A program made the position numbers and the translations under genes. 64,000 bases of DNA from Octopus vulgaris (lineage: Eukaryota), in assembly GCA_951406725.2 (NCBI GenBank), contig OX597816.1, forward strand, positions 143,654,001 through 143,718,000, written 5' to 3'. Shown piece after piece: positions 11,237 through 57,555 of the stretch. The notes under the pieces are model-generated. The model saw only the letters and a program-made list of their open reading frames with translations, had not been told where the DNA came from and did not search any database. Position 1 is the stretch's first letter, and each line of letters begins with the position of its first letter.

Positions 11237-11628
11237 GGCGGCGAGCTGGCAGAATCGTTAGCACGCCGGGCAAAATGCTTAGCGGTATTTCTTCTGCCGC
11301 TACGTTCTGAGTTCAAATTCCGCCGAGGTCGACTTTGCCTTTCATCCTTTCGGGGTCGATTAAATAAGTACCAGTTACGCACTGGGGTCGAGGTAATCGA
11401 CTTAATCCGTTTGTCTGTCCTTGTTTGTCCCCTCTGTGTTTAGCCCCTTGTGGGTAGTAAAGAAATAGCTATTTCGTCTGCCGCTACGTTCTGAGTTCAA
11501 ATTCAACCGAGGTCGACTTTGCCTTTCATCCTTTCAGGATCGATAAATTAAGTACCAGTTACGTACTGGGGTCGATCTAATCGACTGGCTCCCTCCCCCA
11601 AATTTCGGGCCTTGTGCCTAGAGTAGAA
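11237..11628 (+). mobile_element. tRNA-related SINE, dimeric form
   Basis: Same head-core-tail-core layout as 986-1380. Confidence 0.88.
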
Positions 11629-20260: not shown

Positions 20261-21188
20261 TTCACTGCTGGACGATTTCTGCTACTGATATACTGTCCTT
20301 TTTAGCACTATACGTTCTATACAAGATGCTTTCTCGTGACGAACACCACAGTTGTGTGGCTTACTACAGAGTATCCTCGTTAAATGAGATAAGTCGAATC
20401 ATATGTGTGTGTATGTATGTGCGTGCGTGTGCGTGCGTTTATTTCCATATATATGTATATGTGTGTGCGTGTGTGTGCGCGCACACACACACATATACAT
20501 ACATACATGCATACATACATACATACATACATACATACATAGAAAGAGAGAGAAAGAAAGAGTCAACAGATGAGACCCAGGGCTGCTCAATATAGAAAAC
20601 ACATCGTGGCACTCAAATGATTTGAACTTACACACCGAAATCTTTAACGAGGACTAAGTAGCAGGGTAAAGTGTAGCTATAAGAGGAATCCAGGCGAGCA
20701 TATATGGAGATAATGATGCAAATAAACAATTCAACCGTTTGAGCTAGATATATGCTTCCAGTCGTATGGAAGCATATAAACATCAGTAGATCCAACATCT
20801 GTCTTTTGGATGAAGAGATGGTTAGATACTTATGGCTGCATATTCTTGACCTTTTGTGAACTACATCTACCAACGTTATGAAGTAATTCCTAGCCCCCAG
20901 ACACAGCTGTCAGACCTGAAACATCATACGTTCCCCTTAATTTTCTGTCTTTGTATTTTGTGTGAGTTTTTTTTTGTTTTTTTTTTTTCTGTTTATATAT
21001 AAATATCTACATATTAACATAAGGGGGATCAGCCATCTGAATGTGGCTAGGGTCAGGGCGGGGTGGTGGGGGTGTTACTGATGCATTTAGCCCCAGGCGA
21101 ACATCAACGTCACCAGAAGAGCTGACACCATCTCGGTGTCCTTGCCAGCTTGCAAAGGGAGATCAGCCTCCCGAAGATACGGATACTA

Positions 21189-21231
21189 CACACGGACCGG
21201 TTTCGAGGTTATTGCCTCTTGTCAACGTATG
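21189..21231 (-). ncRNA. Minimal type I hammerhead ribozyme, U3-A8 core variant
   Basis: Reverse complement of 21547-21589. Confidence 0.75.
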
Positions 21232-21546
21232 GTAAGCACCGCTCCTCGTTGAGGGACTCTCTCTACAGGCTGGATATATAGATTTTCACAGTAACCACAG
21301 TCACTGGCGTAGAAAATCCGTTCGAAAACAATAACAAATCTCTGAGCGAGATATAAACAGTAACTGCTCTATAACATAAGGGGGATCAGCCATCTGAATG
21401 TGGCTAGGGTCAGGGCGGGGTGGTGGGGGTGTTACTGATGCATTTAGCCCCAGGCGAACATCAACGTCACCAGAAGAGCTGACACCATCTCGGTGTTCTT
21501 GCCAGCTTGCAAAGGGAGATCAGCCTCCCCGAAGAGCGGTGCTTAC

Positions 21547-21589
21547 CATACGTTGACAAGAGGCAATAACCTCGAAACCGGTCCGTGTG
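21547..21589 (+). ncRNA. Minimal type I hammerhead ribozyme, U3-A8 core variant
   Basis: catacg-TTGACAA-gagg(caataa)cctc-GAAAC-cg-GTC-cgtgtg. Confidence 0.75.
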
Positions 21590-21859
21590 TAGTATCCGTA
21601 TCTTCGGGGAGGCTGATCTCCCTTTGCAAGCTGGCAAGGACACCGAGATGGTGTCAGCTCTTCTGGTGACGTTGATGTTCGCCTGGGGCTAAATGCATCA
21701 GTAACACCCCCACCACCCCGCCCTGACCCTAGCCACATTCAGATGGCTGATCCCCCTTATGTTATAGAGCAGTTACTGTTTATATCTCGCTCAGAGATTT
21801 GTTATTGTTATCTACATATTTATACGGGAATATTCATCGTCTGAATACTTTTAGTCCTT

Positions 21860-22247
21860 GTGGAGGCGCAATGGCCCAGTGGTTAGGGCAGCGGATTCGC
21901 GGTCGTAGGATCGCGGTTTCGATTCCCAGACCGGGCGTTGTGAATGTTTATTGAGCGAAAACACCTAAAAGCTCCACGAGCTCCGGCAGGGGATGGTGGT
22001 GATCCCTGCTGTACTCTTTCACCACAACTTTCTCTCACTCTTACTTCCTGTTTCTGTTGTACCTGTATTTCAAAGGGCCGGCCTTGTCACTCTCTGTCTC
22101 ACGCTGAATATCCCCGAGAACTACGTTAAGGGTACACGTGTCTGTGGAGTGCTCAGCCACTTACACGTTAATTTCACGAGCAGACTGTTCCGTTGATCGG
22201 ATCAACCGGAACCCTCGTCGTCGTAACCGACGGAGTGCTTCCTTCCT
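21860..22247 (+). mobile_element. tRNA-derived SINE with 14-bp TSD
   Basis: A-box TGGCCCAGTGG, B-box-like GTTTCGATTCC. TSD tacttttagtcctt at 21846-21859 and 22248-22261. Confidence 0.9.
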
Positions 22248-22281
22248 TACTTTTAGTCCTTATTTTATCGCTATTTACATG

Positions 22282-22314
<33 letters not shown>

Positions 22315-23361
22315 TTTGTATATCTAACCCAAGCGATTAATTTGTTCATTTGCACCATTGCCTATGAATGGTGCACCATTGCACCATTCATATACATACC
22401 TATATGTATGTATATGAAAAATATGAGGGGTTTAGTTCACTGATGATCTAAACCAATATGTACGCTGTATGCGCTATATTAGGGATCCGTAGTGGGCTTC
22501 TGAGTCAACAGATATATATTAGCAGTGTGTGTGTGTGTGTGTGTGTGTGTGAACGAATGGTACGTGGACGACACATGTTAGCCACTCAGAAATACACAAA
22601 GACTTAACTTCACTTAAGCGTTTATTCTTTGGTGTAAAACTCACGGTTACTCAATGGTTACCTCACTTCGGCCTGTCTCTAGGTAGAAATGCCGGAGACT
22701 CAGAGAGAGGTATTCGGGTTGCACAAGTATTTATTACATAATTCAATGACGTACAGATGTCTCTTTATGGTGACCTTAATCGTTATTCCATATACTGAAA
22801 ATCCTATGGTGATACAAGATTGGTGACGTGTGCAGACCTAACCAGTCGGAAGCGTACAGTAAGTTACAACTCCCATCTGTCACATATGCCCCAAACCATG
22901 CTGATCTGCAACAAGACTGTATAGTCATATCTATGAGGTCATGGACAGAAAGTTACAAATGCTATCGACCAGAAGAAAGCACAAGAAGACGGTAATCATC
23001 CTATGAAAATGGAGCAATCTTCATAAATACATGCATGCATACATACATACATACCTGCATACATGCATGCGTAAATACATACATACACACATACATACAC
23101 ACATACATACATACATACATACATACATACATACATACATACATACATACATACGTACATACATACATATCTTTAAAATTTGTTTATGAGAAGCGTTTTG
23201 AATATGCAAATAAAGCTCCTATTATGCTGGCCTCAGTCTATATGATGCTGACTGGCGATACTAGTTTTTCGGGGTTGCATCGAGCTGTACCGATATAATG
23301 AAGGGTAAATATAACAATAAAAAGAATAATTCTTGAATGGAATTTATAAATTCCATCCAAG

Positions 23362-25225
23362 GATTATTATTATTGTATCTTTATCACAGGTTTTGTTGGA
23401 GCTCCTGGAGTATTGCATGCGTAGCGGGCTTACTACCTGCAGCCCACGGCACCATGCTATTCATTCTTTTCAGCTATCCAATACTTTCCTGATTATTCTG
23501 GCCGTGTCAAGGAGGTAAACCTTTTGTAACAGTTCTTATGGGCACTCTATTCCAATTTCCTTTATATTCCCCCTTGATGCCTTCTGATACTGTTCCCAAA
23601 GACCCAACAATAATTGGTACTATCTTCACCCTCTTCATTTTTCATAGACGGGCTATTTCGTACTTAAGAGGGTTGTATCTATCGCTTTCTTTCTTGACTA
23701 TTCGTGGGTCAAAGGAGCATGCGATATCAACTATAAAGCCCATGTAGTGCATCTTGTCCACCACCACTAGGTCCGGTCTGTTATGCTCTAGCATCTGAGC
23801 TGTTTGGATTGGGAAATCTCAGAAGATTTTGCTAGTGTTCGATTCTGTCACTCTCTGCGGTTTGTGCTCATACCACGTCTTGCCTCTTTTTCAGTTTCCA
23901 ATGTAGCACTTTCGCTGCCTGATCCAAATTGTAGTAATTTTGGGAAAGTCCAAGGCATTCGTTCGTGATATGAGCAACGGTTTCATCCATCCTATTGCAG
24001 ATGCGGCAGAGCATTTCTAAGGTTGAGCCTCCAGTTCATAATCAAAGTTTGGTCTTGCACTGCTAGTATAGTGCTCTCGGTCTCTTTATTCCTTTCATCC
24101 CACCTATTTTTTTCAGCAACTTCTGTTGTGACTACATGGAATTGCTTCTGTAATCCCTTCTCGCGTAATTCTTCTTCATATCCTTTTTATAATTCTTCTT
24201 TTGTTTTCCATTTTTCTCTGCTCTCAATATTCCCTCGTTCCTAACTGTCGCTAGTAAGGTTTCCTTACTTTGGGCTAGGTATCTTATTAAGCTCTCGAGT
24301 TCGATATGCACGCAGTCTTCCACACTTATCAGTCCCCTTCCTCCATTTGCTTCTCTATATGCGATCAGTGTCTGCACGTGGAAGATGGGCACCATGCATC
24401 GTTATGAGCTTTCTTGACTTCCTGTCCATCTCCTTTAGCTCCTACATTGTCCACTTCAGGATTCCAGCGCCATACCGAACTACTGCGACTGCACGCGAGT
24501 TTATTGCCGAAATTATGTTTCTGACATTCAGTTTTGAAGCCACTATTTTTCTCTTTCTCTGCAGATACTCTCTTTTTGTCTTTTACTTCATGTCGTGGTG
24601 TTTGATTCTATCTGCTTCAAGTATTCCCAGGTATTTATAGCTGGATTGAGGTTGAATTGCCAACATCATTTTACCACTTGGCAAATATATGCCTTCTGTC
24701 CGGGCAAGCTTTCGTCGTCTCATCACCAGCATAGCAAATTTTGAGAGTTCAAACTCCATCTTAATATCATCGGAGAAAATCTGCACAGACTGGACTAGGC
24801 TGTCCAGTTCTGCCTCAGTAGTTGTGAATAGCTTCAGGTCGTCCATGAATAGCATGTGGTTCAGTTTTCCCTTACCTCTTCCGAGATCATACTCCGATTT
24901 TGCTTTCTGTACCATTCAACTCAAGGTCATTCCCGATACGAATATCAGTGGGGACACAATGCTCCCCTCCTAGTACTTACTTCCCTGCTGTCAATTCCGT
25001 TCTCCAGCATTTTATACTATTCCATATAAGGATTCTCATATTTTCTGCTACTCCATACGTTTCCATTGTTCTTATTATCCAGGAGTGTGGTATCATATCG
25101 TATGCTTTGCGATAGTCAACCCATGCCATACTCAGGTTTTTATGTCTTCTCTTGCAGTTCCTGGTAATTAGATTATCAATTAAGAGCTGATCCTTCGTTC
25201 CCCGGATCCTTTTTCAGCACCCTTT
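23362..25225 (-). mobile_element. R4/Dong-like non-LTR retrotransposon A (RT 3' half, CCHC, restriction-like endonuclease), decayed
   Basis: NHMLFMDDLKLF, YKYLGILEAD, GGRGLISVED, CRICNRMDETVAHITNEC, HNRPDLVVVDK, VPIIVGSLG, ARIIRKVLD. Ends in (TAA)n. Confidence 0.88.
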
Positions 25226-25588
25226 CTTCAGGTTGAGTAGCCGAGCCTGCTCCAAAGATCCTTGAATAAGGGTTGTTTAAGGATGATGAACAAAACATCC
25301 ATGTTTCAAAATGTGAATTATTCAGACCCCAAATAATTTTTCTCGACACATGGCTATAATGCTCCCCTACCACTTCTGCTCTTGATCAGAGATGCACATC
25401 TCGTCAGCCACCAAGAGACATGCTCAACTGGTTAAGGTCAAGAAACTAATAAGCTAATCTGTGGTATGGAGCAGAATATTTGCTGTAGCTCATATTTTAT
25501 ACCAAGACAAAACAATGTACATGATAACACTGCCAATCAGTTAAGATCAGAAGCCATGAGAATTACTGCCTGGAAATGTATCAGGGCA

Positions 25589-25589
25589 T

Positions 25590-25663
<74 letters not shown>

Positions 25664-25670
25664 TTATTAT
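25589..25670. repeat. (ACT)n/(ATT)n tract at the 3' end of element B
   Basis: Direct inspection. Confidence 0.9.
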
Positions 25671-27790
25671 TGCCTTTGCACAGCTTCTTACGCTGGAGAT
25701 GTCCTGCGGTGTCAGCTGTTCACTAACAGTGAACTAATGTAACATCCCTTATTTTTCGAGCACCTTCCGGATTATTCGAGCGCTTCCAAACAGTGCTGTT
25801 TTCTGTAATAAGGGTGGAGCAAGTGTCTTTGCTGTTAACTACCTGTCCCCTTCTCATGACTAATATTGTACATTTATCTATGCAAAATTCCATGTCCATA
25901 TCTTACAGTCTGTATTACAGAATCTATCTCTTTTTCATTCTTACTAAAAAGCTTCAGATCATCTATTTAGAGCAAATGGTTAATTTTTCCCCTCACTATT
26001 TCTGAACTGATGCCCTACCTTTGCCTTCTTTAATACTAAACTGAGGGGGGTCAAATATAAGATAAATATTAAAGGGGATAATGGGTCCCCCTGGAAAATA
26101 CCTCTTTTGATATTAACTTTCCCTCAGAGTGTGTCACTTGAGTAGAGACCTACTTTCCATTTCGTCATGCTAAAGCTAATTAATTCTCCTATGTTATACA
26201 GAACATACTCAAACAGTCACTTATCCATGAGTGTGGGATCATGTCATAGGCTTTCCTGTAGTCTAGTCATGCTATTGATCGATTTTTCTCTCTAGCCTTT
26301 ACTTCATTTAGAACTGCTTTGTCTATGTATAATAGATTATGCGCTCCTCTTGCCTTCTTCCTGCAACCTGTTTGTTCTTCTGGTAGTAAATTCTGGATGT
26401 CAAGGTACTCGTAAATGCTTTCTGAAAGCCTTCCTGTTAACAGCTTCTACACTAACGGTAAGCAAGTAATCGGTTTATAGTTGCTAGTTGTATTATCTTT
26501 GCTCTTATCTTTCATAATGAGTTCTCCTTCTAGTCATTAAATCTGGTATTATTCCTCCATTAAGGCAATCCTGAAGTTGTTCCCTCAGCCTCCCATGTAA
26601 ACTACTAAATTTCTTTAGCTGGTACCCTTGAACTAAATCTGGTCATGTGTCCTTCCAATTCGGCATTTTCCCTAACACTTTACTCATTAATACTCTAGTC
26701 TTAGATCTAGCTGCTTCTTACTCACAATTTCTTCCCTCACTTTCTTTAACTATACTGCATCTCCATTATGATTGCTTGGCTTATCCCAAATATTACACCA
26801 GAACTTCCTAGTTTCTTCTGCATTAGGTTTCCCATCTTCAGTACTTCGTTCTCCACTATTTATTTGGTTATAAAAGCTTTGGTTTGTCTCAAATAATCTA
26901 TTTTATTGATACTGATCTATTCTTTTCTTATATCTGAAGAACTTGCCTGCAGCTGCTATGATACACTCTTTCAACTCTTCTATTACTGTCCCAAATCCTT
27001 TCTCTTTCACTAAGTATCTTTTCCTAAGGGAAGATTTGCATCTTGTGTTTCCTATCTTGTTCAGTTTCCAGGCTTCTATTTTATTCAGATCTTGTCTTAA
27101 AGTTTTCACTTTTTTTGTAGTTTTCTTTTCCACATTTCCTCTTTTTAATGTTTCCTTGTGAAATATCTAATTTTCTAGTGACTACTGCCCTTCCTGCATA
27201 GATCAATAAGTTAGTGTCTCCTATATTTTTAGTATCTATCCTACTGATAACAGAATCTACTTTCCTAGTCATTTCTAGCAGCTTCCTTCTGTTGGTGCCT
27301 TTTAATGCTGGAAATCTTTTTCTTCTTTACTCATTACTTCCTGCAACTCATCCAAAAATCTTCTGATCTTCCCCACTTAAATCACTTAAGTCGCTGGTGC
27401 CAGTAGTCCCTTCCTTATTGGAAGCGTTATTATTTTTTCCTTTAGGTTCTTCTTTGATTTGAAGTGTATCTCTTACGTTGTTGCTTGTATTTCCTACTGC
27501 CTGGTCTTTCTTTTCCAGTTCTCTTGTGATCTCTTCTACCTCCAATTCTGTCATCCACTTTCTTCTCTTAATACCATTAGCTTGAGCTACTAATCTCTGC
27601 TCAGTCACTTTAAACATACCCAAAGTGTTAACATCCGTTAACATTTTGTTCTATAGCCCCTTCTTTTAGGTTCACTGTCTAAGTAGCACTGCATCACTAT
27701 CCTATTTTCTTCGCTGATCCACTTCCTCCCCCTTACTCTATTATTTGCTGATGCTGTCTTAGGATAGTAGCTGTGGTCAGTCTACATCTT
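25671..27790 (-). mobile_element. R4/Dong-like non-LTR retrotransposon B (N-terminus, RT and 3' tip; internal deletion), decayed
   Basis: TEQRLVAQANGIKRRKW, NLLIYAG, RGIFQGDPLSPLIF and DDLKLF, joined directly to the C-terminal LQKTALFGSARIIRKVLE. Confidence 0.82.
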
Positions 27791-28517
27791 TACTGAACCA
27801 CTGCCGAGCGAGAAGCCTTCCTTTAAAGGTCCAACTTGATTTTCGCTGTTACATTCAGAGTTTCTTCGGAAACTCCTATCTCTCATAAACTGAGGTAAGG
27901 TAACGTTTATCATCAACGTAATCACCACTGTTATTTTTCGACATCCGATAGTTTCAAGCAACTTTCTAATGCAGCATTTTTGTGGGGTGGGAGATATTGC
28001 ATTGTATCGGTATGTTTTGTTATGGGCTTTGGTTTGAGTCTTCTGTTGTGTTAGTTTTTGTATTGTGTGTTGTTTGTGCAGTGCAGGTTTTGTTCTTCTG
28101 TCGGGTATCGTTAATTTTGTTGGGTATTTTCGGTATGAGTTTATTCCTATATGCTTTTGCAGGACTGTTGCATAGTAGTGTGTGTAAATCATAAATCGAC
28201 TATTTCATAGTCTTTATGGTTATCTGTCCACCATTTATTTGGTTGGTGGACTCTTTGGTTGGTTTTTTTATGGGTTCGTTTTTGCAGCGTTTACTTTTTT
28301 AACTGAACACCACCCATGGAAAGTGTTGATGTTTCTTTCGTAGTTATAATTATTATTGATGTATCAGTGAGAGACCGAGAAAAAACAGCAATGTGCATAC
28401 ATATAAAGGTCTTGTATTAATATGGATGTATATGTAATTAAAATAAAAAAAATTAAAATTTTACTCACAGCTTTGAAGTTTTCGTATATAAATATCGCAG
28501 TGTTTACATTTTTACGG

Positions 28518-28518
<1 letters not shown>

Positions 28519-28548
<30 letters not shown>

Positions 28549-28649
28549 CTTCTTCTTCTTCTTCTTCTTCTTCTTCTTCTTCTTCTTCTTCTTCTTCTTC
28601 TTCTTCTTCTTCTTCTTCTTCTTCTTCTTCTTCTTCTTCTTCTTCTTCT
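28519..28649. repeat. (TTC)n microsatellite
   Basis: Direct inspection. Confidence 0.97.
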
Positions 28650-29222
28650 TGTATATCTTCCGATATACTGGAAGCAACAGAGTGCTTCCGGTATATCCGT
28701 TATATACTTTTATTGTTCGTATTATATACTCTAAAGTTTTAAACTTCTACGTCATACATCTACGATCTGGTCAATAGCCCTGTGTCAAATTCTAATTCGT
28801 AGACGTTTGACGTAATCGTTGGGTACTAAGTATACAGAAGTAGTAAGAAATTTTAGAGAGAGCTGAACTGTATAAAATTTTCAGAAAAAACTTGCTCATG
28901 ACTTTTTATAAGTGTTTCGATTCTTGACTCCGGACATTCTAAGTGGGCCGGACTGCACCAATTTCGTGATTCCTGCTTCGAATCTACATCCTCCGGTATG
29001 ATAAAGTGCCTGAAAGCTAAGTCACTTTTAGGGTGAATGTTGTAACTACGTAGCAGTGAGACACAATCTGTAAATAGGGAAAGCTATGCCTTCTGAAGTT
29101 CACTTTTGTACCTACTTCACCAGATCAAGTTAGAACTGTTTTCACTTACTTCTACTATTGTCTTTGGGTCTCTGACCTTCTTCCCTTCAAGACTGAGAAT
29201 ATCGTAATATATACAAGAAAGC

Positions 29223-30346
29223 ATACGAGGGTGGGGGTAACTGGTAGCAATAGCAGATATAACGTCGTCATCATTGTGATACTGGTTCCCAGTCAAGTGT
29301 TTTTTAATGTTGGGGAACAGATGATAGTCAGATGGGGCCAAATCAAGAGAATAGGGAATTTGATCAACCAGTTCAAAGCCACAGTCACGCACAACATCCA
29401 TTGAAACTAAGGACTTGTGTGCTGGAGCATTGTTCTGATGAAACAAAGCCCCTTTCGTCAAATTTCCTGGGTGTTTGGCTTTGATAGCGTTTCGTAACTG
29501 CCTCAGCAAGTTGGTATAGTACTTTTCATTGATGATGTAGCCCTTTTGAAGATAGTCAACTAATACAATGCCATTTGAGTCAATAAACACAATGACTTTT
29601 GCATCGCAAAGAAACTGAGACCATTACCTTCCTTTTAGATGTAACGTCCTTGGCCTTCTTTGGAGCAGCCGAGGAGTGGTGGTTCCCTGCATAGATTGTC
29701 TCTTTGTCTTTAGTTCAAAGTGACGAAGCCAACACTCATCATGATTTAGGAAACGTTTTAGGAAACCAGTTAGATCCGCCTTAATCAGTGTCAGATTTTC
29801 TCGTGATGTGATCAGCCTGGTGCACTTTTGATCGGGTGTCAGTAGAGTGACACACACCGAGCAGAAATCTTCGTCCTGACAAATTCATTGCGCAAAATAT
29901 TTGATTTATAGTCAATCGCCTATCATCCATCAACATGTGGTGAATATGACCAACGTTTTCCTTGGTGGTGGCAGTTGCAGACTTTGGGTCATCTTCAAGA
30001 TTTCCTTCGCTTCCCTCCTAAACCCAGCTGGTCGCTTTTGCATTGTTGATAAAGCTGGAGCATCATCCCCTAATGTAGCAAGCATGTCACCATGAATGTT
30101 CTTGGCATCTAAACCCTTTTCCTGCAGGTACTTGATCACACCACGATGCCAAATTTTGTCCATTTTCAAGATAAGTCGCTACTAATTATTTTTGAAGTCT
30201 TCTTTGAACAGCTAGGTGTTAATTTACCTGGAAAGAAACTATGACGTTATTAGTAAGAAGGGTTGAAATAAATGCATGCAAAATTTCATAGCTTTAGCAT
30301 CATTTCTTCATAGTCAACCTACGAACCTTTCGGGCCATCTTCGTAT
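29223..30346 (-). mobile_element. Mariner transposon, near full length, pseudogenised
   Basis: MDKIWHRGVIKYLQEKG, NHDECW, FHQNNAPAH, PYSLDLAPSDYHLF. TIR remnants tacgagggtggg (29224) and gtcaacctacgaacc...cttcgta (30313-30345). Confidence 0.9.
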
Positions 30347-30541
30347 ATAAGCATGCTTTCATTTGTATGTTACGATATATGTGCATTTTAAATGACTATC
30401 ATGGCACTTCCGGTATGTAAATTCCGTGACGTCATTTGTACTGTCTTGAAAAAAAACTTTGATAAACAATAGTCGTAGATTCATTATTGCTGGATAAAAA
30501 AATGGATGGTCTGCTGATCAAGGATAACAAAACAACAACAA

Positions 30542-30573
<32 letters not shown>

Positions 30574-32440
30574 ACAACAACACAACAACAACAACAACAA
30601 CAACAACAAAAACAACAACAGCAGCAGCAGCAGCGGCAACAGCATGACACTAGCCCTGGCGGCTCTGCATCAAGTTGGCTCTGTAACATCGATCATTCTT
30701 TAAGATGTACCAGCTGACTGCAAGTTAAAGATATATTTTCGTCTGTTTTACAGTGCTGTCGCTCTTTGCAGTGAAGGGTGAGCAAATGTTCCAATTGGGA
30801 GGAGCTCACAATTTCGGGTGGACCTGCCAACCTTATAAAGAAAAGGAGCTGGCCCTTTCGTACGGACTATTTACTGTTAGATAGTTTGAGAGAGCGGTTT
30901 CTTTGACAAAGAATTACTTATATTTATATAAGTTGTTTTAGTTCTTTTATTCTGTTGTGCTTCTTATCCACTCTACATGTACCTGTATTTGCCCGTAACC
31001 CATATATAAATCATATGTGCTTAGCATTGGTTACTAAAATAGTAAATATACATTATGAAACGTGGCATACATTTCACATCCGGCATATGTTTATTGCCCG
31101 CTTTGAACAGGCCTGACTGTGGCTTTTTATTGCTTTGTGATTTGAGTCACGTTTAGAACATAACAAAATATATCACGTTTCACGCCTCAATCAGTGTACC
31201 ATTATGTGACCGCGCCCAGATTTACCTTAAATTATGGCACAACTGGAACAACTTTGATTAAAAGTCGGTTCAATCATGACTGATTTCACTGTAGGCAACA
31301 AGGGCATTATGGTAATTTCCATTTTCAAAACTTTTGCTTTGTCGATCGACCGGCTTGAAAAAGCAGCCTATTATCGATCAAATAATTTCCTATTATCCTT
31401 AGTAAAGTAAGGTTACGTTAATTAATAAATTCTTAGACATCCTCCTGAAAAGACGGTGTTATCATGATTGGAATGTCTTTGATCATGGGTTTGCCAATCC
31501 AGGGTTGATCTGGAGCTAAGCTACAACAATAACAACATCACGAGTCAAGTCACTTCCAATCACAACCTACTGTCTTAAGTATGAAAATGACGAATTAAAT
31601 AATAGAGTTCGACATGCCCCTAGAAAGACGGGATGGTCACAACCGGAATACCTTTTAGTATACTCAGAATTAGTTGACTTGGAGGTTATGCAATATTAAC
31701 GCCATTAACATTGTCTTCAAAACCTCATCAAACAATATCCTTTTACTTCAAAAACTTAGGATAATGTAGCCATAGAAACGTTATGTTTTTAAAAGAAGAA
31801 AAAAACAAGATGGTCATATTTAGAACACCTTTCAGCCCTTTCATCATTGATCTATTGAATTAGATTTGACTTAATCACTTTCACCATTATGACCGCCGAC
31901 GCCAACGCCACCAACACTTGTTCTGCTTTATTAATAGCCTGATTCACACGGACAGAGATCATCACAGGGTGTCTACATTGTTGTGACTATCCTTAGATCA
32001 TTGAGGATTAAGTATGTCACGGATACATGTATTAGTGGTAGGGGTAAGCTATTGGGCTATCAGCTTGAAGAGTCGGTGTAACAACCGATTCTTCAGTGGA
32101 AAGCCTGGTTGCTTATCGACTCGATATGTGGGCACACATATACATACTGCATATATGTATATGTATATGTATATGTATTTATATATATATATGTACAAAA
32201 AGGGTGAAATATAATTAATTGTATATTGGATACTATTACTCCCTCACAATAAATCTGCGAAACTTCGTTTCGTTGGTAATGTTTTGTAACTCACGTGGTA
32301 ATTTTGGAGGGAGATACGAATTCGCCTGTCTATATAAATGTAGAGATGCTAGCGGACGGTTAGATCGTTCGATGTCGCCTGATCGAGCTGGTGTAATGGG
32401 TGAGTTTGTTTTCCTAGCATTTCTAGATTTATAGGAAAAT

Positions 32441-32498
32441 ATTATATTGACAATGAAATGAACCTTCGGTTCTAATCCAGAAACAATTCGTCTATAAT
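32441..32498 (+). ncRNA. Hammerhead-like motif, U3-A8 core variant
   Basis: attata-TTGACAA-tgaa..gaacc(ttc)ggttc..tcca-GAAAC-aattc-GTC-tataat. Stem I is a perfect 6 bp. Confidence 0.6.
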
Positions 32499-32667
32499 TA
32501 ATCCAATAGGCTGGGATTTCGTTATTTTCTTTCTCTTTACCATATACGGGTTACAAATTCTGTTTGTTTGTAGAGACTTTTTTATTAGTAGGAGAAATAG
32601 TGATCTATTTGGCTGCTATTTCTAATATTTTCGGTATGTGGTTTTGAGCAACTTGTTGCAATTAACC

Positions 32668-32742
<75 letters not shown>

Positions 32743-32869
32743 GTGTGTGGGTGGGTGTGGGTGAGAGAGAGAGAGAGAGATGACAGAAGTAAATAGACAC
32801 CCTTATAATCATTAAGATTTCTTTAAATCTGAAAATATACATTCAAATTATTTATTAATTGTTATGTGA

Positions 32870-33990
32870 ATCCTTAATATTTTGTAGACATGCCCTTTAC
32901 ATTTTTCATTGCAAGGACCCTATTAGGCATGTTACTGATTAGATGACGAATATTCTATTGCGGAATTTCTTGCCAAGTTTCATCTCAATAGATCTGGCTT
33001 TGAAAATGTTTTCTTGTTCTTTTTATGAAGTGTCCTGTCGATTATGTCCCAGAAGTGTTCAATAGGGTTCATATCTATCTAGTCACTGGCTTGGCCATGG
33101 AAGCTTTTTAATGCCATTCTCATCCAACGAATCTTGGGTCATTTTAACCGTGTGACAGGGAGCCCCATCTTCCATAAATAAAGTCTTATTTAATCATTTC
33201 ATCACTGGAGAAGATTGGAAGGAGCCCTTTCTGCAAAATGGACACATATTTATCTGAGTTTATGTTTTCCTCACACTCCACTATCTCTAATCGACCATTG
33301 CTCCAAATTGCTCCCCAGACCATCACAGGATAGCTGTTGTGTTTCATTGTTTGCTGCAGTCTCTTTACATCAAATTCTTGATCACAGAGTCTTCAGACCC
33401 ACACTCGACCTTTGTCAGGAAATACAGCAAATCTGGACTTATCAAAGGATATGACAGTGTCCCAAAAAGCTAGTGGCTTCTCCACCATCTCACTAGCCCA
33501 ATCTTTTCTCTGCTTGATTTTGGCTGGTCGAAGAAGTGGCTTCCTTCTTGCTGCTCTGCTATAGTAACCAAGATTGGGAAGATGCCTGACAGCTGTTGTG
33601 GGACTGGCATCCACTTGTTCTGCTATGTCAGAGGCCTTGCAACGAAGATTATCCTCCATACTTCTCTTAGCAAAAAGAAGGATCCCGTCAGAGGGCCCGG
33701 GTTGATCTAAGTGAAGTGATGTGGATTCCTTTCTCTCTCTGGTGAATTGCACAATCACTCAATTAACTGCAGAGAGCGGGATTCCAAGGTTTTCTGTGAC
33801 TTTATGCTATGTCTACCTTCAGAATGACCCACAATGCGGCCTCTTTGAAATTCAGACAGTACATGGTATAATTAAACAGTCACATATAGAACCTGAAACA
33901 TAAAAATGTCAATTAATAAAAAATATAAACCCTTACATGTTAGAATAAACATGAAACGATGTTTTATGGGGTGCTTATTTACTTCTGTCT
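32870..33990 (-). mobile_element. Tc1-like transposon relic
   Basis: LGYYSRAARRKPLLRP..KQRKDWA, ISFDKSRF, MVWGAI, FMEDGAPCHT, WP--SPDRYEPY-NTSG. Confidence 0.85.
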
Positions 33991-34001
33991 TGTGTGTGTG
34001 C

Positions 34002-34058
<57 letters not shown>

Positions 34059-34119
34059 AAAACGGTTATATTCTTCCCCATGCAACTTAAAGTTTCGTAG
34101 GCTCGTTACAGGAACTTAG

Positions 34120-34265
34120 CTCGTCGGCGCGTTGTCCAGTGGTTAGAGTGCTGCACTCACGATCGTGAGATCGTGGTTTCAATTCCCGGACCAGGTAGTG
34201 CGTCGTGTTCTTGAGCAAAAACACTTCGTCACGCGTTGCTCTGCGATCACTTCGACATCTGACAA
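34120..34265 (+). mobile_element. tRNA-derived SINE 5' fragment
   Basis: GTCCAGTGGTTAGAG...GTTTCAATTCC, then 'gtgttcttgagcaaaaacac' shared with the SINE at 8966. Confidence 0.7.
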
Positions 34266-34391
34266 GGTCGATTTGAGCTAACGTACAGCACATACATTTG
34301 ACCACAATAAGTAAAAAAAAAACAACCCATTTGTGTAGATAGTTCAGCAAAAGCTGAGTACTCATACGTCGTCTTCGACGGGAGATTCCAT

Positions 34392-34745
34392 CTCATATAA
34401 AAGATTAAAGATCCTCCACTCCTTCGGTCACGAATGACCATGGGATTGCACCTAGATTCTTCCCCTCCGTGGCACAAGTCCGGGCAAAGGTTGTTTGCGA
34501 AGATCAGCAGTCGCCCATGCATACCCTGCATACCAACAACCCATCTCCACGTCACCGATGTTATCTAAGGGAAAGGCAAAGGCCGATACAGCTTGGCACC
34601 AGTGACACCGCAACTCATTTCTACAGCTGAGTGAACTGGAGCAACGTGTTTTGCTCAAGAACACAACACACTGCCCAGTCCGGGAATCGAACTTACAACT
34701 TTAAGATTGTAAGCCCGTCGCTCTGCCCACTGAGGCATGCGCCTA
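34392..34745 (-). mobile_element. tRNA-derived SINE (family of 8966-9303)
   Basis: Reverse complement shares 'gccaagctgtatcggcctttgcctttcccttg' and the tRNA head. Confidence 0.8.
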
Positions 34746-34984
34746 TATATTTAGTATTAATTGTCAGAAAAACAGTACTCAGTACTATGGGAGAGATTAA
34801 TGATATTTTAGTTTGGTCGAGTTAATCTCTTGGTACTCTGAGTTTCAGCTGTAGGTGCACAGTATCTTCAGGCAAGTTCTGAGTCACAGCTTGCCTGACA
34901 TGGTGAAGTGTAGTGGAATAAAACTTATTCAAAATGGCTCACTCACACCCTGAAATAATTCATTTTAATTAGTTTAGCATGAAG

Positions 34985-35240
34985 TAACGGGGCTGTGCTC
35001 AAGGTCTTTGCAGGTCCCCTGAGACCGGTGAGATTGAGGCTATTAACATTCCGCTTGAACTCTTGCAAACTGACAGCTGCAGAAACAAAATCACACGTGC
35101 AGGGATGGAATTTCTTGTGGGTAGATGTTCTGGTTTGGAAGGAGTGGGTGTGGGGTTTAGTGCATCCCTGAAGCTGTGACGAAAGTAAGGTGGACGAGTG
35201 AGTAGGGAGTGCCTTGCAAGAGACCAGCTTCCGCACAATT
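34985..35240 (-). mobile_element. CR1-like LINE 3' end fragment
   Basis: HSFQTRTS..NSIPA..SLQEFKRNVNSL resembles a CR1/L2 ORF2 C-terminus. Confidence 0.55.
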
Positions 35241-36329
35241 TCTGTCGATAAAATTCCATTCACCAAGCCTTAATCGATCAGAGGCTATGGTTGCTGACTG
35301 GTTTCAATTATTGGTGTTTGGCTTCTAGGGTACAGTCGATCACATCAGCCCGAATGTATAGACTGGTATATATATTTTAGGCCACCTAAGAAAGAAAGGC
35401 AGAGTGGCCTTGGATGGAATTTGAACTTAGAAAACAAAAGGATGTAACCAATTATCACAAAATATAGCATATACACAAACACAGGCATACATACATACAA
35501 GCATATATGCATACATGCAATACATACATACATACATACATACATACATACATACATACATAAATACATACATACATACATACATACATACATACATACA
35601 TACATACATACATACATACATACATACATACATGTAGAGAATGCTATTATTTTCGAGATACGCTTTAGGATACGATGACAGAGCAACACTCGAATTTCGT
35701 AGAATTATCTCGAATTGCGGGTATCCATATCATTTATTATACTTCTTTTATCTACAGCAATGATGTTATCTCGCTATCTGTCTTTCTTTCCATCTGTCTG
35801 TTACCCCCCCTCTCTCTCTCTCTCTGTTACATACATTCTCTCTGTCTCATTCGCTCACAAATTACGCACACGCGCACATAAAAGCACACATACATACGTA
35901 TGAATATTTACATAAATACCAGCATTAATTTTACCACCTAATCTCCAGCAGTGAATTACACACACATACACTCTCTTTCTCTCGCCTTCTCCCCCTCTCT
36001 TTCTCTCTCTCACTCACATGCACATACATGTTTATATATGAAATGCATCCTCTGTTGGATTTCGAGATGAATATTCAATTAATAATCTGTACCATCTCTT
36101 TGAGAAATTGATTACGTCTTCTATAGTTCTCTTAAAGCTATGGCAAACACTAGTATACTGAGGGTGCTGCTGTACTTCGTCTCCGGATGCTGGAATCAAC
36201 GACTCATCAAGTGGGGAAGCAGCTGTGTAGGTGCTTCGTTCCATTCCGCCGCGTCACTAGAGCTACTCGGGGGTCAACCACCGATGTAGGTGACAAAACT
36301 CCTACACAACAACACGAGCATTATTGACT

Positions 36330-36900
36330 CAGGACTAAATGTTTCTACCATCAGTAATGCTTGTTTTTGCTGCGCCACTCTTCCCTTCTCTTAAGTCAAA
36401 TATAATGGTCTACTTTCTCAGTGGCTTCCGTCAATTTTCTAACATGGTTTCTCTCCTTCACAGCCAGCCTAAGTCTTCTGAAAATCTTCCAACAGTTATC
36501 TACACAAGAAAGCATATTGTACCCCAACCACTGTTTTCACAAAGTTTAACCAACTCACTGTATTTTCTGTCTTTCCCGAGAAAAGCATTTTCGATGTTCG
36601 TTTCTCAAGGAACTGCCAGCTTTCGGGATAACCCTGGGAAAAATTAATAATTTCTGGTTTCTTGTTAGTTTTCTCTCTGTCTGTTCGAAATCATGAAATT
36701 GCAAATATTGCATCACCATTTTGTACTGTTGTGTCATCATCGTTGGGCGTAACAATTGGTCAGCATAGATGTTGCTCAAGTTGAGAGAGTTTGAAACATA
36801 TGCGACAAGAATTTTTCTTTCAAGAAATTTTTCCTCAACTTTGACTCAATTGTAGCTGAGGTTGCTAATAAAATATCTGGAAAATTTTTGCTGTTTAACA
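36330..36900 (-). pseudogene. Possible piggyBac-like transposase relic
   Basis: LRPTMMTQQYKMVMQYLQFHDFE resembles the PGBD 'FR-TM---RF--I---LRFDD' segment. Very degraded. Confidence 0.35.
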
Positions 36901-37630
36901 AAATAAAAATGTTTAAAGTGGGCAAAATGAGTATTGACTAATTTCAATAATCTCTTCTCTTTAACGGCATGATGCGTAGATGTATCAGGAAGAGAGCCAC
37001 TCCAACATTTCGTGAAGAAGCTATAGAGAATATTTTATGTTGAATCTTTACATTTAGTCGAGTTTCAGTAATTTCATGTCATGTGACATTTTCCCATGAT
37101 CCCTTTTCCAAGATATTTAAAATTTCTTTTGCATTTTTGATCTTTCTCATGTCAAGGGATGGATATTGGTGTGAATGAGTCACTTTCTAAAATTGTCTTT
37201 TATATACTCAAAGAGAACGGAGAAAATTTTCTGTTATAGTGTTTTTAACGCATGTAGAGAAAATAATTTGCTTAGCTGATATAAAAGGTTTTTGTAAGGT
37301 AGGGAACATTTGTAAAAAATGCAGTGAATATTACTCATTGTGCTGCACCCTTATACAAATATTAATTCTTATCCTGGTACTTATTTTTTCCTATTGTGCA
37401 GCTTTCCCCAAACTGTATTGAAATGTTCAGAATTGTTGTACTTCGGGATGATCTTTTCGTTTTTGTCAAATAAACACACGTACTATATATTCACTCGTTT
37501 ATTAATGTTCTTATTCTAACTCATGTACATTGTCCGGAAATCTTTTGTCACACATCTGTAACTTTTCAGCGACACTTGCTGTCTTCGTGTGTGCTCTTGC
37601 TCTGCTTGTTCCATTCTTATATAAGTATCT

Positions 37631-37853
37631 TTCTCTTTTACTCTTTTACTTTTACTTGTTTCAGTCATTTGACTGCGGCCATGCTGGAGCACCGCCTTTA
37701 GTCAAGCAAATCGACCCCGGGACTTATTCTTTGTAAGCCCAGTACTTATTCTATCGGTCTCTTAGGCCGAACCGCTAAGTGACGGGGACGTAAACACCCC
37801 AGCATCGGTTGTGAAGCAATGCTAGAGGGACAAACACAGACACACAAACATAA

Positions 37854-37886
<33 letters not shown>

Positions 37887-38058
37887 CATATATACGACAG
37901 GCTTCTTTCAGTTTCCGTCTACCAAATCCACTCACAAGGCTTTGGTCGGCCCGAGGCTATAGTAGAAGACACTTGCCCAAGATGCCACGCAGTGGGACTG
38001 AACCCGGAACCATGAGGTTGGTTAGCAAGCTACTTACCACACAGCCACTCTTGCGCCA
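37631..38058 (-). mobile_element. tRNA-derived SINE with internal microsatellite
   Basis: Reverse complement of the family at 62231-62625 (gttccgggttcagtcccactgcgtggca..ttgggcaagtgtcttctactatagcc). Confidence 0.9.
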
Positions 38059-38744
38059 TATCTGAGTATTCCACAGACACTTGTACCCTTAAAACAACCT
38101 TTTGATAGAATCCGTGTGAAACAGTATATGTGACAAGGGCGGTCATTTGAATTATGGGTGGATTTGATGGGCTTCTCTTTAGTTTCTGGCTATGGATCAA
38201 CCTGGTTATTGTAAAACAATTGGGTCAGCTCGAGGTTATGGTAAAATATATTTACTTCAGGTACCAAGCAATAGGATCGAACTTGGGAACTTCGTCATTG
38301 CGATGTAAACGTTTCAACTACTTGCCCATCTAGATATCTTTAAAATGACTAGCTGACCCAGGCGAGAATGCTATCGATCTGATTGATTTGGAATACTGTA
38401 GGGTTAAACAACAGCAACAACATCGACGACCATCACACTATACTACTGCGTTACGCAATTGATATACCCATCCATACACCACCACATTAAACCAGTACCA
38501 TACTAACATCAACTCCTCATATATGACATATAACAGTACACTACTCCATTCACCGAATAGCAGGTTATCACATCACTGTAGGAATAACAGTACGAGTGAA
38601 CGGAGGAGCCTTTATGCAGCCGCTTGATTTCTTACTATGGCACAATAATAAAAATGCTTGTAACCTCTATATACCTCTGCTCGACCAAGGCTGACCTGCG
38701 CTAAATATCCTCCCCCCTCCTCCTCCTCCTCCTCCTCCTCCTCC

Positions 38745-38779
<35 letters not shown>

Positions 38780-39373
38780 GTCATCATCAGGAACAACAGC
38801 AGCAGCAGCAACAACAACAATGAGAATAATATGAAGTGGTAGATGCAATGACATGTTTATTTATGTATTTACACACTAGAACACTGACAAATTAGTGTTC
38901 GTTGGCTTGCGTTGTTATGGATTGATGTTTTTTGAGCAGAAACACTCCCTTTGCAGATAAGCTACATGAACCAAACAAAAGACACTCCAGAACTGTGAGC
39001 AATTGTGAGCTTCTAGTGTCATTGAAGAGAAAATAATTTCCTGTTTGGACTGTTTTTCAGTCATTATCTAGGATAGGTTAGGAGGTCTGATTGTCTTACT
39101 TCCTTTTGGACATTCAAGATATGGAAACAAACAACTTGAAATAGCTTGATGGCCAGTTGACGCTTGTTTAATACACAGTTTAAGATCGGTGTGTGTATGT
39201 GTGTAAGTGTGTATGTATGTATGTACGTATTTACGTACGTATGTATGTATGTACATAATTACGTATGTATGTATGTATGTATGTATGTATGTATGTATGT
39301 ATGTATGTATGTATGTGTTTGTATTTACGTATGTAAAACCCAAGTATATGTAAGTACGTACATATGTTTGTAC

Positions 39374-39419
<46 letters not shown>

Positions 39420-39709
39420 ATGCATCTGTTAATATTTCATTTTAAAAATATATTTATACGGAAGGCAAATACTTCCTGTCATTTTCAAAAGTTGATTTCT
39501 AACAAGTTATGAGTTACAGAACAGTAAGGCATTAAACAACATAACGCATTTGACAAATTGTCCTTCATTTAATTATATGGTCATCAACAGAAGGTATTCC
39601 TGGAAAATTCTGCAATAAAATTACTTCAAGTTGTTTGATTAGTGATTGTTTTCCGCTCAAAATCTATAAATATTCTATCAGTCATTCATATGTCTGCTGT
39701 ATAACTATA

Positions 39710-39750
39710 CTCTACTAATGAGATTCAATAGGATCGAAACATGCCCACAG
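39710..39750 (+). ncRNA. Degenerate minimal hammerhead relic
   Basis: ctcta-CTAATGA-gattc(aata)ggatc-GAAAC-at-GCC-cacag. G5A and U16.1C changes make it probably inactive. Confidence 0.4.
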
Positions 39751-40329
39751 TTGTCACTGTACTCGCCAAAGATACGACTCACTTCCTAATGTAGGTCCAC
39801 ATTCAATCTCAATATCATCTCAAAATTCGAAGTTGTCCCCTTCACCTTTCTTCGTGAAAATTACTACATCTAATGATTTTTTTGTAATTACTGATGTATT
39901 TAAAATTTATACTTTGACATAATGGCATTGTCCGCCATTTAACAATTTTACATGTATGGAATTGCAAAAAGATTTTGTATATTTTTTTAATTAAAATTTG
40001 CAATGTTATTAGTTTTAATATTTTCTGTATTTTAAGACCTTCAACTCTTCTTGCTACTATTGAACTCTAGAAAAATGACGATCTAGCAGAAATCTTATTA
40101 CGCAGAACAAAATGCTTAGCGGCATATATTCTGGCTTTATGTTCTGAGTTAAAATGTCATCGAGGTCGACTTTGCCTTTCAGCTTTCAGGATCGATAAAA
40201 TAAGTACTTAGTAATTTCAGGCATTGTACCTATGGTAGAAAAGATTATACAACCCAAGATCAATGTTGCTTGGCGCGGAGGAAAGGCTGTAACTATAACC
40301 TTCGCAAACAGAAATCGGTGAGATTTCAG

Positions 40330-40501
40330 GGCATCACCTTGAAGAGTTTTAATCGGTGAGTTAGTCTCATTGGTTATTGTTTTTAAAGGCTGGTGCTTAT
40401 TCTATCTGTGGCTTATGTCGAACCGCTAAGTTACGGAGACGTATATAATCAACACCAGTTGTCAAGTGTTGGTAGGGCATAAAACAAGACACACAAACAC
40501 A

Positions 40502-40554
<53 letters not shown>

Positions 40555-40733
40555 GCACACGCACACATATTCGACGGGCTTTCATTCAGTTTTCATTGAC
40601 CAAATGTACTCGCGAGGCTGTGGTCGGCCCGGGGCTATATTAGAAGAGACTTGCCCAAGGTGCTACGATGTGGGACTGAACTCGGAACCATGTAACTGGA
40701 AAGCGAACCTCCTACCACACAGCCAACCGCATC
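40330..40733 (-). mobile_element. SINE with internal (CA)n (family of 62231-62625)
   Basis: Shares gaaccgctaagttacgg, acttgcccaaggtg and gtgggactgaac. Confidence 0.8.
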
Positions 40734-41004
40734 CCCCAGCTTCTTAGACTCAGACTGGGGCAATTTTCTAATTATAGGTGCATTAACTTACTAGTTATAG
40801 CTGTTCGCATGAACTTTTATAATTTAATTTCCCTTATGTGCAAGACGCACCATCTTTTTGCCTCTGATAAAAAGATTTTGAACTTCAAATATTTAGACCC
40901 TCCTTATTGAATATTTATAAGAAAATAGATTCAACAACTATAAACATTTATTACTTATATAACGTATACTGAATCACGAGAACAAATATTTAAAAACCCT
41001 ACTT

Positions 41005-41180
41005 TGAGTATAATAGAAATAATTGCTACAGAAGGTAGAGTATACTGGAAACTTTATTTATCACAACGATCATTTCGGTACATTCTGCACCGCTAAGGGG
41101 CAGTGCAGAACGTGCAGAAAGTATCGTTGTGATAGTTTCCAGTATACTCTATCTTCTGTTTCAGTTATTTCTAGTATATA
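41005..41180. repeat. ~170-bp hairpin, MITE-like fold-back
   Basis: acagaaggtagagtatactggaaact..tatcacaacgat..ttctgcac versus gtgcagaa..atcgttgtgatagtttccagtatactctatcttctgt. Confidence 0.85.
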
Positions 41181-41245
41181 GTCGCCATGATAGATCGGTA
41201 ACCACTACATACATTTTTTTTCTCTCCTTGTTTTTTTCTGTGTCC

Positions 41246-41281
41246 CTTTCTGTAGAAGAGCGTAGGCTCGAAACGTAAAAG
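41246..41281 (+). ncRNA. Minimal hammerhead-like motif with A6U change
   Basis: cttt-CTGTAGA-a-gagc(gtag)gctc-GAAAC-GTA-aaag. Confidence 0.5.
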
Positions 41282-41348
41282 ATTTTTTCAATTCCTGAGC
41301 GTTATACACCACCTGCCTTCGTCTTTTTTTTGTGAAATCTCCCCCACC

Positions 41349-41404
<56 letters not shown>

Positions 41405-41878
41405 GTAATGGTTAAGAGGTTCACTTCTTAACCACGAGGTCCGGAGGCTGATCTCTCTACGTGACATCTATATAGCCTCGGATCGAATCGAAATGGGTAG
41501 ATGTGAACTGCATAGGTACTCTTCCGCTGAATTCGTATAATTCAAAGATACAAACTGAGCTAAGCTGATTCTGCCAGAGAATTACGGTAGGGGTATACTG
41601 GTCTATGGAATGCACAGCCACTTACGCTATAATTCTATGAGAAGGTGCTTTAATTGATGGAAATCAAAGATCCATAATTTTTTATGCACACTCGCGCGCA
41701 CGCACACAGCATGTGTTGAGCACGCTTCTCCTATTGGTCTGAGATAAACCAACTTGTGTGTGTATGCGCTGTGTGCGCTTCATGTTCTCTAAAATGATAA
41801 AAGAACGAAAAAGAATAAAAAATTAATAATAATAATAATAACAACAACGACGACGACGACGACAACAACAACAACAAC

Positions 41879-41912
<34 letters not shown>

Positions 41913-42100
41913 GTAATCTCTAAATAATAAAACAATGAAGGCCAAATGACAACACAAATGAAATATGAGAACAATAACAATGTAGAGACTTCACATCACG
42001 TCTAGCTGTTTCTTTTAATATATTATATTTTCTTTTTTTCTTTTTAATTTGACATGAGAGAAAGAGAGATGGAGAGAGAGAGAGAGAGAGAGAGATAGAT

Positions 42101-42149
<49 letters not shown>

Positions 42150-42500
42150 ATCTGTAAGACACTCGATCCATTTTCTTCAGATGACATTCTGTTTTTATGA
42201 GACTCTCCCTCTCTCTCTACTTCACATCCTTCCCTGACTCGTTACTTATCTGTCATCAGAGGAGTGATAAGTTAACCGGAAGTGAGGTGTGAACATCACT
42301 ATTATGAGAGATAAGTTATCTATCTTCTCTTGTCTTTTGGTCTTTTTAGTTTTTTGTTCATTTTGCTATCCGTTTGTATTAAATGTATTCTTTTCGTATT
42401 AATACAGAGTATTCAAGGGAGACCCAAAACGAATAATGAGTGACTCAATAAACTCACTTCCGGGCTTTATACCAACTTGTCCCATCACTCTCTTTCTGTC

Positions 42501-42530
<30 letters not shown>

Positions 42531-42533
<3 letters not shown>

Positions 42534-42979
42534 ATAAATCTCTAAGCGAGGTATAAACAGTAACTGCTCTGTAATATAAGCGGGACCAGCCATCTGAATG
42601 TGGCTAGGGACAGGGCGGGGTGGTGGGGGTGTTACTGATGCATTTAGCCCCAGGCGACTATGGACGTCACCAGGAGAGCCGACACCATCACGGTGTCCTT
42701 GCTAGCCTGTAAAGGGAGATCAGCCTCCCCGAAGATACGGATGCTACACACGGACCGGTTTCGAGGTGGTCATGCGCTGACGAGAGGCGACCACCTCGAA
42801 ACCGGTCCGTGTGTAGCATCCGTATCTTCGGGGAGGCTGATCTCCCTTTACAGGCTAGCAAGGACACCGTGATGGTGTCGGCTCTCCTGGTGACGTCCAT
42901 AGTCGCCTGGGGCTAAATGCATCAGTAACACCCCCACCACCCCGCCCTGTCCCTAGCCACATTCAGATGGCTGGTCCCG

Positions 42980-42986
<7 letters not shown>
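42531..42986. mobile_element. Palindromic HHR-bearing element (same family as 21016-21808), inserted in (TA)n
   Basis: Arms 42574-42771 and 42789-42986 (198 bp, apparently perfect) with a 17-nt spacer. Homologous to the 357-bp unit. Confidence 0.92.
42771..42813 (+). ncRNA. Minimal type I hammerhead ribozyme, canonical core
   Basis: catgcg-CTGACGA-gagg(cgacca)cctc-GAAAC-cg-GTC-cgtgtg. Confidence 0.85.
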
Positions 42987-57540: not shown

Positions 57541-57555
57541 TCTCATAAATATATG

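Follow-up and report, generated by a model that had tools for sequence, protein, structure and literature searches.

Two insertions of a short, ribozyme-bearing repeat, assigned below to the non-LTR (lacking long terminal repeats) retrozymes, lie in a stretch of 64,000 nucleotides of the Octopus vulgaris genome (assembly GCA_951406725.2, contig OX597816.1, positions 143,654,001 to 143,718,000, forward strand); the whole stretch is referred to here as the window, and positions are counted from its first letter. Between them, the insertions harbor three type I hammerheads, and they differ in the nucleotides at positions 3 and 8 of the catalytic core (U3-A8 in the one, C3-G8 in the other). Below, the four states of this pair are followed through the retrozyme family: their abundance, the order in which they arose and the kind of constraint they may reflect. 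The subfamilies are labeled A (U3-A8), B (C3-G8) and C (the C3-A8 group).

Hammerheads and insertions in the window

21004..21015, plus strand: left copy of the 12-bp target-site duplication, read directly
21016..21808, both strands: retrozyme insertion of subfamily A (U3-A8), about 790 bp, with head-to-head arms
21016-21535, minus strand: minus-strand arm of this insertion, about 1.45 monomers
21189..21231, minus strand: the insertion's other U3-A8 hammerhead, located in its minus-strand arm, core from 21225 to 21219
21536-21808, plus strand: plus-strand arm of this insertion
21547..21589, plus strand: type I hammerhead, core UUGACAA, U3 at 21553, A8 at 21558, helix II at 21560-21573
21583, plus strand: predicted cut after C17 of this hammerhead, from the hammerhead consensus
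21809..21820, plus strand: right copy of the 12-bp target-site duplication, read directly
42530..42984, both strands: retrozyme insertion of subfamily B (C3-G8), a near-perfect palindrome in a TA repeat
42771..42813, plus strand: type I hammerhead, core CUGACGA, C3 at 42777, G8 at 42782
42807, plus strand: predicted cut after C17 of this hammerhead

A pattern scan of the window places the core UUGACAA at 21553 (+) and 21225 (-) and the core CUGACGA at 42777 (+), all in homologous stems, just as a preliminary description of this DNA, made from the letters alone, had it. Each core is followed by GAGG-6 nt-CCTC (a 4-bp helix II), GAAA, CCGGTC and a 6-bp helix I, and all three motifs show GUC and a helix III strand made of the palindromic CCGG. 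The hallmarks of a type I hammerhead, i.e., the N3-U-G-A-N-N8-A core, G-A-A-A, U-H and three helices with helix I open, are present, and positions 3 and 8 could form a Watson-Crick pair in each of the three window motifs, unlike in the 670 U3-G8 and at least 35 C3-A8 copies of the family. Another 12 loose pattern matches in the window are devoid of the flanks of the retrozyme family, and the minus-strand arm of the insertion at 42530..42984 begins inside helix II, without the core.

The two hammerheads of the 21-kb insertion, taken in the preliminary description as two copies in support of the same variant, are identical across 228 aligned bases save for a 1-nt gap and represent the arms of one insertion; therefore, they constitute a single observation. 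Since 20 of the 214 aligned sites differ between the 21-kb and the 42.8-kb elements, the probability that positions 3 and 8 both differ by chance is about 0.9%, so the window alone provides modest evidence for 3-8 covariation. The Rfam model HH9 aligns to 21534-21606 (E 2.2e-05 with 81 bases searched; 26.9 bits vs. a gathering score of 52), and Hammerhead_1 aligns weakly to a genomic copy, L002, with a core identical to that at 42777 (E 2.1; 12.1 of 34 bits). The gathering score is missed by both models; short helix III variants score low. The Rfam scan of the whole window returned only microsatellite-driven matches, and no hammerhead, among the 150 of 208 matches listed.

The retrozyme family and its 3-8 states

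Judging by the repeat unit and its ribozyme, the window motifs are assigned to a non-coding non-LTR retrozyme of about 358 bp with a type I hammerhead. The motif of this repeat lying outside the ribozyme has at least 5,105 genomic matches. The tandem units, each holding a hammerhead, are 351-361 bp long (non-LTR retrozymes being non-coding units of 170-400 nt), and their arrays reach 9 units on one strand; the open reading frames (ORFs) flagged within retrozyme loci belong to neighboring elements. Dispersed copies, the 12-bp target duplication and a divergence of 1-2% in the young subfamilies point to recent mobility. The fold of the monomer beats all 100 shuffles (z -4.45). Contigs of four runs presumed to be RNA cover the unit, giving no read-out of ends, strand or level, and in such assembled contigs a circle junction is indistinguishable from a tandem junction.

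The apparently largest young subfamily is characterized by the core CCGAYGA (U4C), a U10.1-U11.1 mismatch and a 7-nt loop 2; arrays of up to 9 same-strand units occur in it. Both U4C (a viroid variant) and the U10.1-U11.1 mismatch are known natural variants (PMC3088659). Example loci of this subfamily are as follows.

L243, L220, L230, L251 and L275, e.g., G000:C1:31009488-31013479: U4C subfamily

Non-LTR retrozymes have been described in coral, mussel and axolotl (PMC7229834). The octopus family resembles the metazoan ones, as far as the available text of the sources goes (Cervera and de la Pena 2020, PMC7229834; bioRxiv 10.64898/2026.07.22.740005), in its non-coding tandem units (350-360 bp) with a type I hammerhead, its thousands of copies and its self-paired monomer; the mussel family comprises about 5,000 copies of 350-390 bp. 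Unlike them, the octopus family is rich in non-canonical 3-8 states, and its insertions are often inverted and two-armed.

Genome counts of the four states were initially obtained with a narrow scaffold of the hammerhead. It yielded C3-G8 in 576 copies, a non-C3 class with A8 in 423 (U3-A8 in 100 of the 100 listed), a non-C3/non-A8 class in 105 (U3-G8 in 97 of the 100 listed) and C3 with non-G8 in 36, of which 35 are C3-A8. These counts overstated the covariation and were set aside: a sample picked without reference to the ribozyme revealed missed subfamilies, so the scaffold was widened. The widened scaffold gave 3,722 matches, namely 965 U3-A8, 670 U3-G8 (U3 in 1,635 altogether) and 2,087 with C3 and a purine at position 8; among the latter, 98 of the 100 listed have G8 and 61 of the 100 listed have C4 (U4C). 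The C3-A8 state accounts for at least 35 copies, 29 of them in one dispersed young group (mean divergence 1.1%); 26 of the 35 have one loop in common and, with three close relatives, occupy 21 loci. If positions 3 and 8 were independent, about 560-575 such copies would be expected instead of 35-60, the copies themselves being not independent.

The ribozyme-independent sample consists of 100 matches of the outside motif, of which 58 reach the core (57 real, one junction artefact). Counted by locus, it holds C3-G8 at 17 loci (U4 at 10, C4 at 7), U3-G8 at 8, U3-A8 at 5 and C3-A8 at none, and besides variants at positions 3, 4, 7 and 8 there is one core defect, G5A, in the 57 copies. Hence, the wobble single U3-G8 is about as common as the double U3-A8, and C-A is rare. 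U3-G8 is fixed in several subfamilies (e.g., in 15 of the 15 rows of the CCTGGG subfamily), and sporadic singles, such as four C3-A8 copies in the TCAATA-loop family, number a few among hundreds. Both single variants have thus multiplied as subfamilies, an outcome foreseen neither by strict compensation nor by decay.

These counts bear upon the preliminary description in several ways. Its suggestion that U3-A8 had been present in the template before insertion agrees with a state that defines whole subfamilies (965 genomic matches), and the dispersal of these subfamilies supports its view of U3-A8 as something other than CpG decay. Its own test, in which singles as frequent as the double would speak for decay, came out halfway: U3-G8 is frequent indeed (670 vs. 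965 matches; 8 vs. 5 loci in the ribozyme-independent sample), but these singles are inherited subfamily states and, as such, indicate no decay. Strict compensation at the 3-8 pair, however, did not hold, given the common U3-G8 subfamilies and the C3-A8 group at 21 loci. An association of C3-G8 with tandem arrays (18/39 vs. 16/152 loci) was considered and dropped, since it vanished between the age-matched sisters A and B; loci with tandems make up 8/44 in A, 3/19 in B and 1/21 in C3-A8.

Selection and the order of changes

The tree of the family was built of 123 rows (at most three per variant type out of 275 near-full copies) with the core columns removed. It takes the form of a ladder from older subfamilies (8% pairwise divergence) to young ones (1-2%). 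Parsimony on these rows finds no inner-branch change at G5, A6, A9, G12, A13, A14, A15.1, U16.1 and C17; outside the hammerhead, the mean is 1.66 inner changes and 31% of the columns are unchanged, giving a rough P of 3e-5 for nine invariant positions. The helix III strand is self-complementary in 109 of the 123 rows, across eight common sequences, and the pairing of helix I is kept through C-G, U-G, U-A and A-U, G-C swaps. Selection on the ribozyme is supported, chiefly by the nine catalytic positions without change and by a helix III strand able to pair with itself in every subfamily; the earlier proposal that the family is selected for hammerhead structure is sound in this respect.

For the 3-8 pair itself, the data suggest selection but fall short of showing it statistically, the events being too few. 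On the inner branches, all three changes at position 3 were between U and C; position 8 underwent seven, each of them between A and G, which equals the changes at the free N7. The inner branch length spent in each state amounts to 0.74 for U-A, 0.36 for U-G, 0.17 for C-G and 0.017 for C-A.

A 65-row tree covers the younger half of the family, with U3 in the outgroups and basal rows. There, a C3C4-G8 clade (support 100/99) is nested within U3-G8 rows (100/96), and these within U3-A8; U4C arises on the same branch as C3-G8 in this U3-G8-derived lineage. Also nested in U3-A8, a clade of C3-A8 and C3-G8 (100/99), subfamily B included, is sister to subfamily A. The approximately unbiased test rejects a common origin of both C3-G8 groups (p-AU 1.9e-07) and likewise the clades A+C and A+B (0.001 and 0.007, respectively). 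In the younger half of the family, U3-A8 is likely the ancestral state and C3-G8 has likely been derived twice. A first regain of C3-G8 through U3-G8, in the seemingly largest lineage, which also bears U4C, is well supported; a second, weakly supported one probably ran through C3-A8 and led to the lineage of the copy at 42777. Taking C3-A8 as an intermediate, not as a later loss, is more parsimonious, at a support of 72/69. The canonical C3-G8 copy at 42777 is likely the derived form, so the direction implied in the preliminary description is probably to be reversed, with U3-A8 ancestral in the family of the window.

The U3-A8 swap, genuine as it is, had already been published: its natural covariation was reported in 2011 by Perreault et al. 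(PMC3088659), and about 1,300 U3-A8 hammerheads accompany Penelope-like elements in Schistosoma mansoni (PMC4209133). The latter resemble the octopus motifs in having U3-A8 in place of C3-G8 and a palindromic helix III that needs dimers. Unlike them, the octopus hammerheads display a canonical 4-bp helix II and no extra base past A9, and their unit is without an ORF; moreover, a single tree accommodates the octopus U3-G8, C3-A8 and U4C subfamilies, and the available text of PMC4209133 does not describe intermediates. The variants of PMC3088659, in its available text, are scattered across organisms, whereas the octopus states succeed one another within one family. Selection on a hammerhead has been shown earlier in a cave cricket satellite family (PMC2837043). 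In the literature searched, no report of U3-G8 or C3-A8 subfamilies or of compensatory intermediates in ribozyme repeats was found, although such cases may be listed in Lunse et al. 2016 or in the supplements to PMC4209133 and PMC3088659. Overall, the kind of element and the U3-A8 swap are already known; the interest lies in the natural series of intermediates.

Proposed cycle, rival explanations and neighboring repeats

In the family of the window, 71 of the 3' ends are long, 55 are short and two are other, and 32 of the 32 inverted loci combine one long and one short 3' end. Mobilization by a Penelope-type element would leave inverted arms and two fixed 3' ends (tail), and the combination of long and short ends corresponds to the two points where reverse transcription starts in the Penelope-like element PAc (PMC11167929); extension of both strands and AT-rich targets are further likenesses. 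A different repeat at L021:1750-1980, joined to a subfamily B array, has the same long-end tail sequence.

The proposed cycle would begin with transcripts longer than one unit, which would pair via the palindromic helix III into double hammerheads and would slowly be cut at GUC. The cut unit would probably be circularized, and a Penelope-type reverse transcriptase would copy it from two fixed starts, one on each strand, giving inverted two-armed insertions. Pairing of positions 3 and 8 would help cutting, with U-G sufficient and C-A survivable for a while. It seems fairly probable, from sequence comparison, that the 3-8 pair is under such a soft, asymmetric constraint (Watson-Crick and U-G tolerated, C-A short-lived) in a predicted ribozyme for which slow cutting probably suffices, on a unit copied by Penelope-type elements. 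More tentatively, and with rather less confidence than an even chance would warrant, the subfamilies may be regarded as a dated fossil series, in which U3-A8 turned into C3-G8 twice (via U-G and via C-A) through replicating intermediates, and in which a detuned core (U4C, U-U closing pair) serves the most successful of the young lineages.

A number of points weigh against these readings. Neither the missing G8-to-A change on inner C3-G8 branches (P 0.07-0.39) nor the speed at which C3-A8 is left again (P 0.09-0.27) reaches significance. Master lineages display an excess of AT-to-GC changes (97 vs. 70) opposite to the lean of the tips (46 vs. 72; p 0.002), by which both lineages could have arrived at C3-G8 with no selection acting on the pair; the lean itself could stem from errors in copying, from RNA editing or from stems being selected for stability. 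The C3-G8 clade without C3-A8 has a support of 72/69, so C3-A8 may be a later loss. The tree rows were picked and ascertained through hammerhead patterns, and the history of short recombining elements may not fit a tree. The U3-A8 form is said in PMC3088659 to be active in vitro, with reference to Przybilski and Hammann (2007). In pairwise mutagenesis, the 3-8 pair was rescued solely by a C-G to G-C swap in the construct used, so the activity of U3-A8 here cannot be assumed (PMC9901934). Hammerhead mutants left PAc insertion in vitro unreduced (PMC11167929). As for a Penelope-type carrier, the one family compared, represented by 19 search loci and four longer stretches, shares no sequence with the retrozyme (the query locus aside), in which the octopus case is unlike PAc.

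Strict compensation could be saved if only C3-G8 and U3-A8 were active, and U3-G8 and C3-A8 were dead and cut in trans: by the geometry of the double hammerhead, the core of one molecule would cut the site of its partner. Suitable partners exist, since C3-A8 has the CCGG helix III and helix I in common with subfamilies A and B, and the U3-G8 and U3-A8 groups have CTATAG or CCTAGG in common; dimer folding has also been described for Penelope-associated hammerheads (PMC4209133). C3-A8 has the lowest tandem rate (1/21 loci), but this deficit is non-significant (p 0.28), and U3-G8 spans about a fifth of the inner branch length with several origins and is carried by every row of the CCTGGG subfamily, so freeloading of this kind appears unlikely.

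One could also envisage near-neutral drift by transitions at positions 3 and 8, with cleavage dispensable, the structure kept for folding or enzyme recognition and the AT-to-GC bias producing C3-G8 recurrently. Position 8 being as changeable as N7, the excess on master lineages, U4C together with the U10.1-U11.1 mismatch in the largest young lineage and PAc insertion unimpaired by catalytic mutants would all accord with it. Such drift is nevertheless improbable in view of the invariant unpaired catalytic positions, the helix III palindromic across eight sequences and the scarcity of C-A relative to U-G, by copies and by branch length alike; U4C, for its part, is known from nature, where its activity is lowered yet sufficient (PMC3088659). 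Finally, U3-A8 and the singles might stem from a C3-G8 element decaying after insertion (C-to-T changes, CpG loss); G8 sitting in a CpG when N7 is C would speak for this, as would scattered single changes such as those of the TCAATA-loop family. Such decay is refuted by the subfamily structure and hence extremely improbable: every state is fixed in dispersed subfamilies with diagnostic changes of their own elsewhere, the young ones diverge by a mean of 1-2% pairwise, and the sporadic singles are a handful among hundreds of copies.

If the fossil-series reading is true, retrozyme spread selects slow, not fast, cleavage, and the copy numbers represent an in vivo fitness landscape of core variants nearly dead in the test tube. 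The family provides a natural test set: near-isogenic subfamilies comprising the four 3-8 states and U4C, for which copy numbers, ages and a tree are available. Two questions become testable with it, namely the passage of compensatory changes through a mismatch in a catalytic RNA and the cleavage activity needed by a retrozyme or a Penelope-type element. Furthermore, most of the family escapes hammerhead searches that insist on CUGANGA (U3 in 1,635/3,722 matches; U4C in 61 of the first 100 C3 matches listed).

Retrozymes directly adjoin coding fragments of the GIY-YIG type (Penelope-like) of two families at L061:1061-1312 (-) and L009:2132-3007 (-), by template switch or chance adjacency. The L061 fragment led to a very abundant Penelope-type family, in which no sequence in common with the retrozyme was found. 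At least three subfamilies of long interspersed nuclear elements (LINEs), with a zinc knuckle in ORF1 and an endonuclease/reverse transcriptase in ORF2 (Pfam), end at one retrozyme site, about 25 nt upstream of core position 3 (among loci selected for retrozymes). Their target duplications are roughly 12-17 bp, and the copies are sometimes stacked; presumably, these LINEs are Tx1/L1-like. They are found at the following positions.

L121:2165 and 7488; L124:6840 and 1542; L122; L123; L092:1474; L320:285 and 8998: LINEs ending in the retrozyme

In the window, a SINE-like (short interspersed nuclear element) repeat at 21859-22240, with what we take to be a tRNA-like head, begins about 40 bp to the right of the 21-kb insertion. 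An 18-bp CA/CG-rich unit is repeated 45 times at 19448-20260 (96% matches), and dispersed inverted repeats, 88-93% alike, occur at 37636-37871 and 62393-62628 as well as at 1052-1223, 11303-11474 and 57547-57718.

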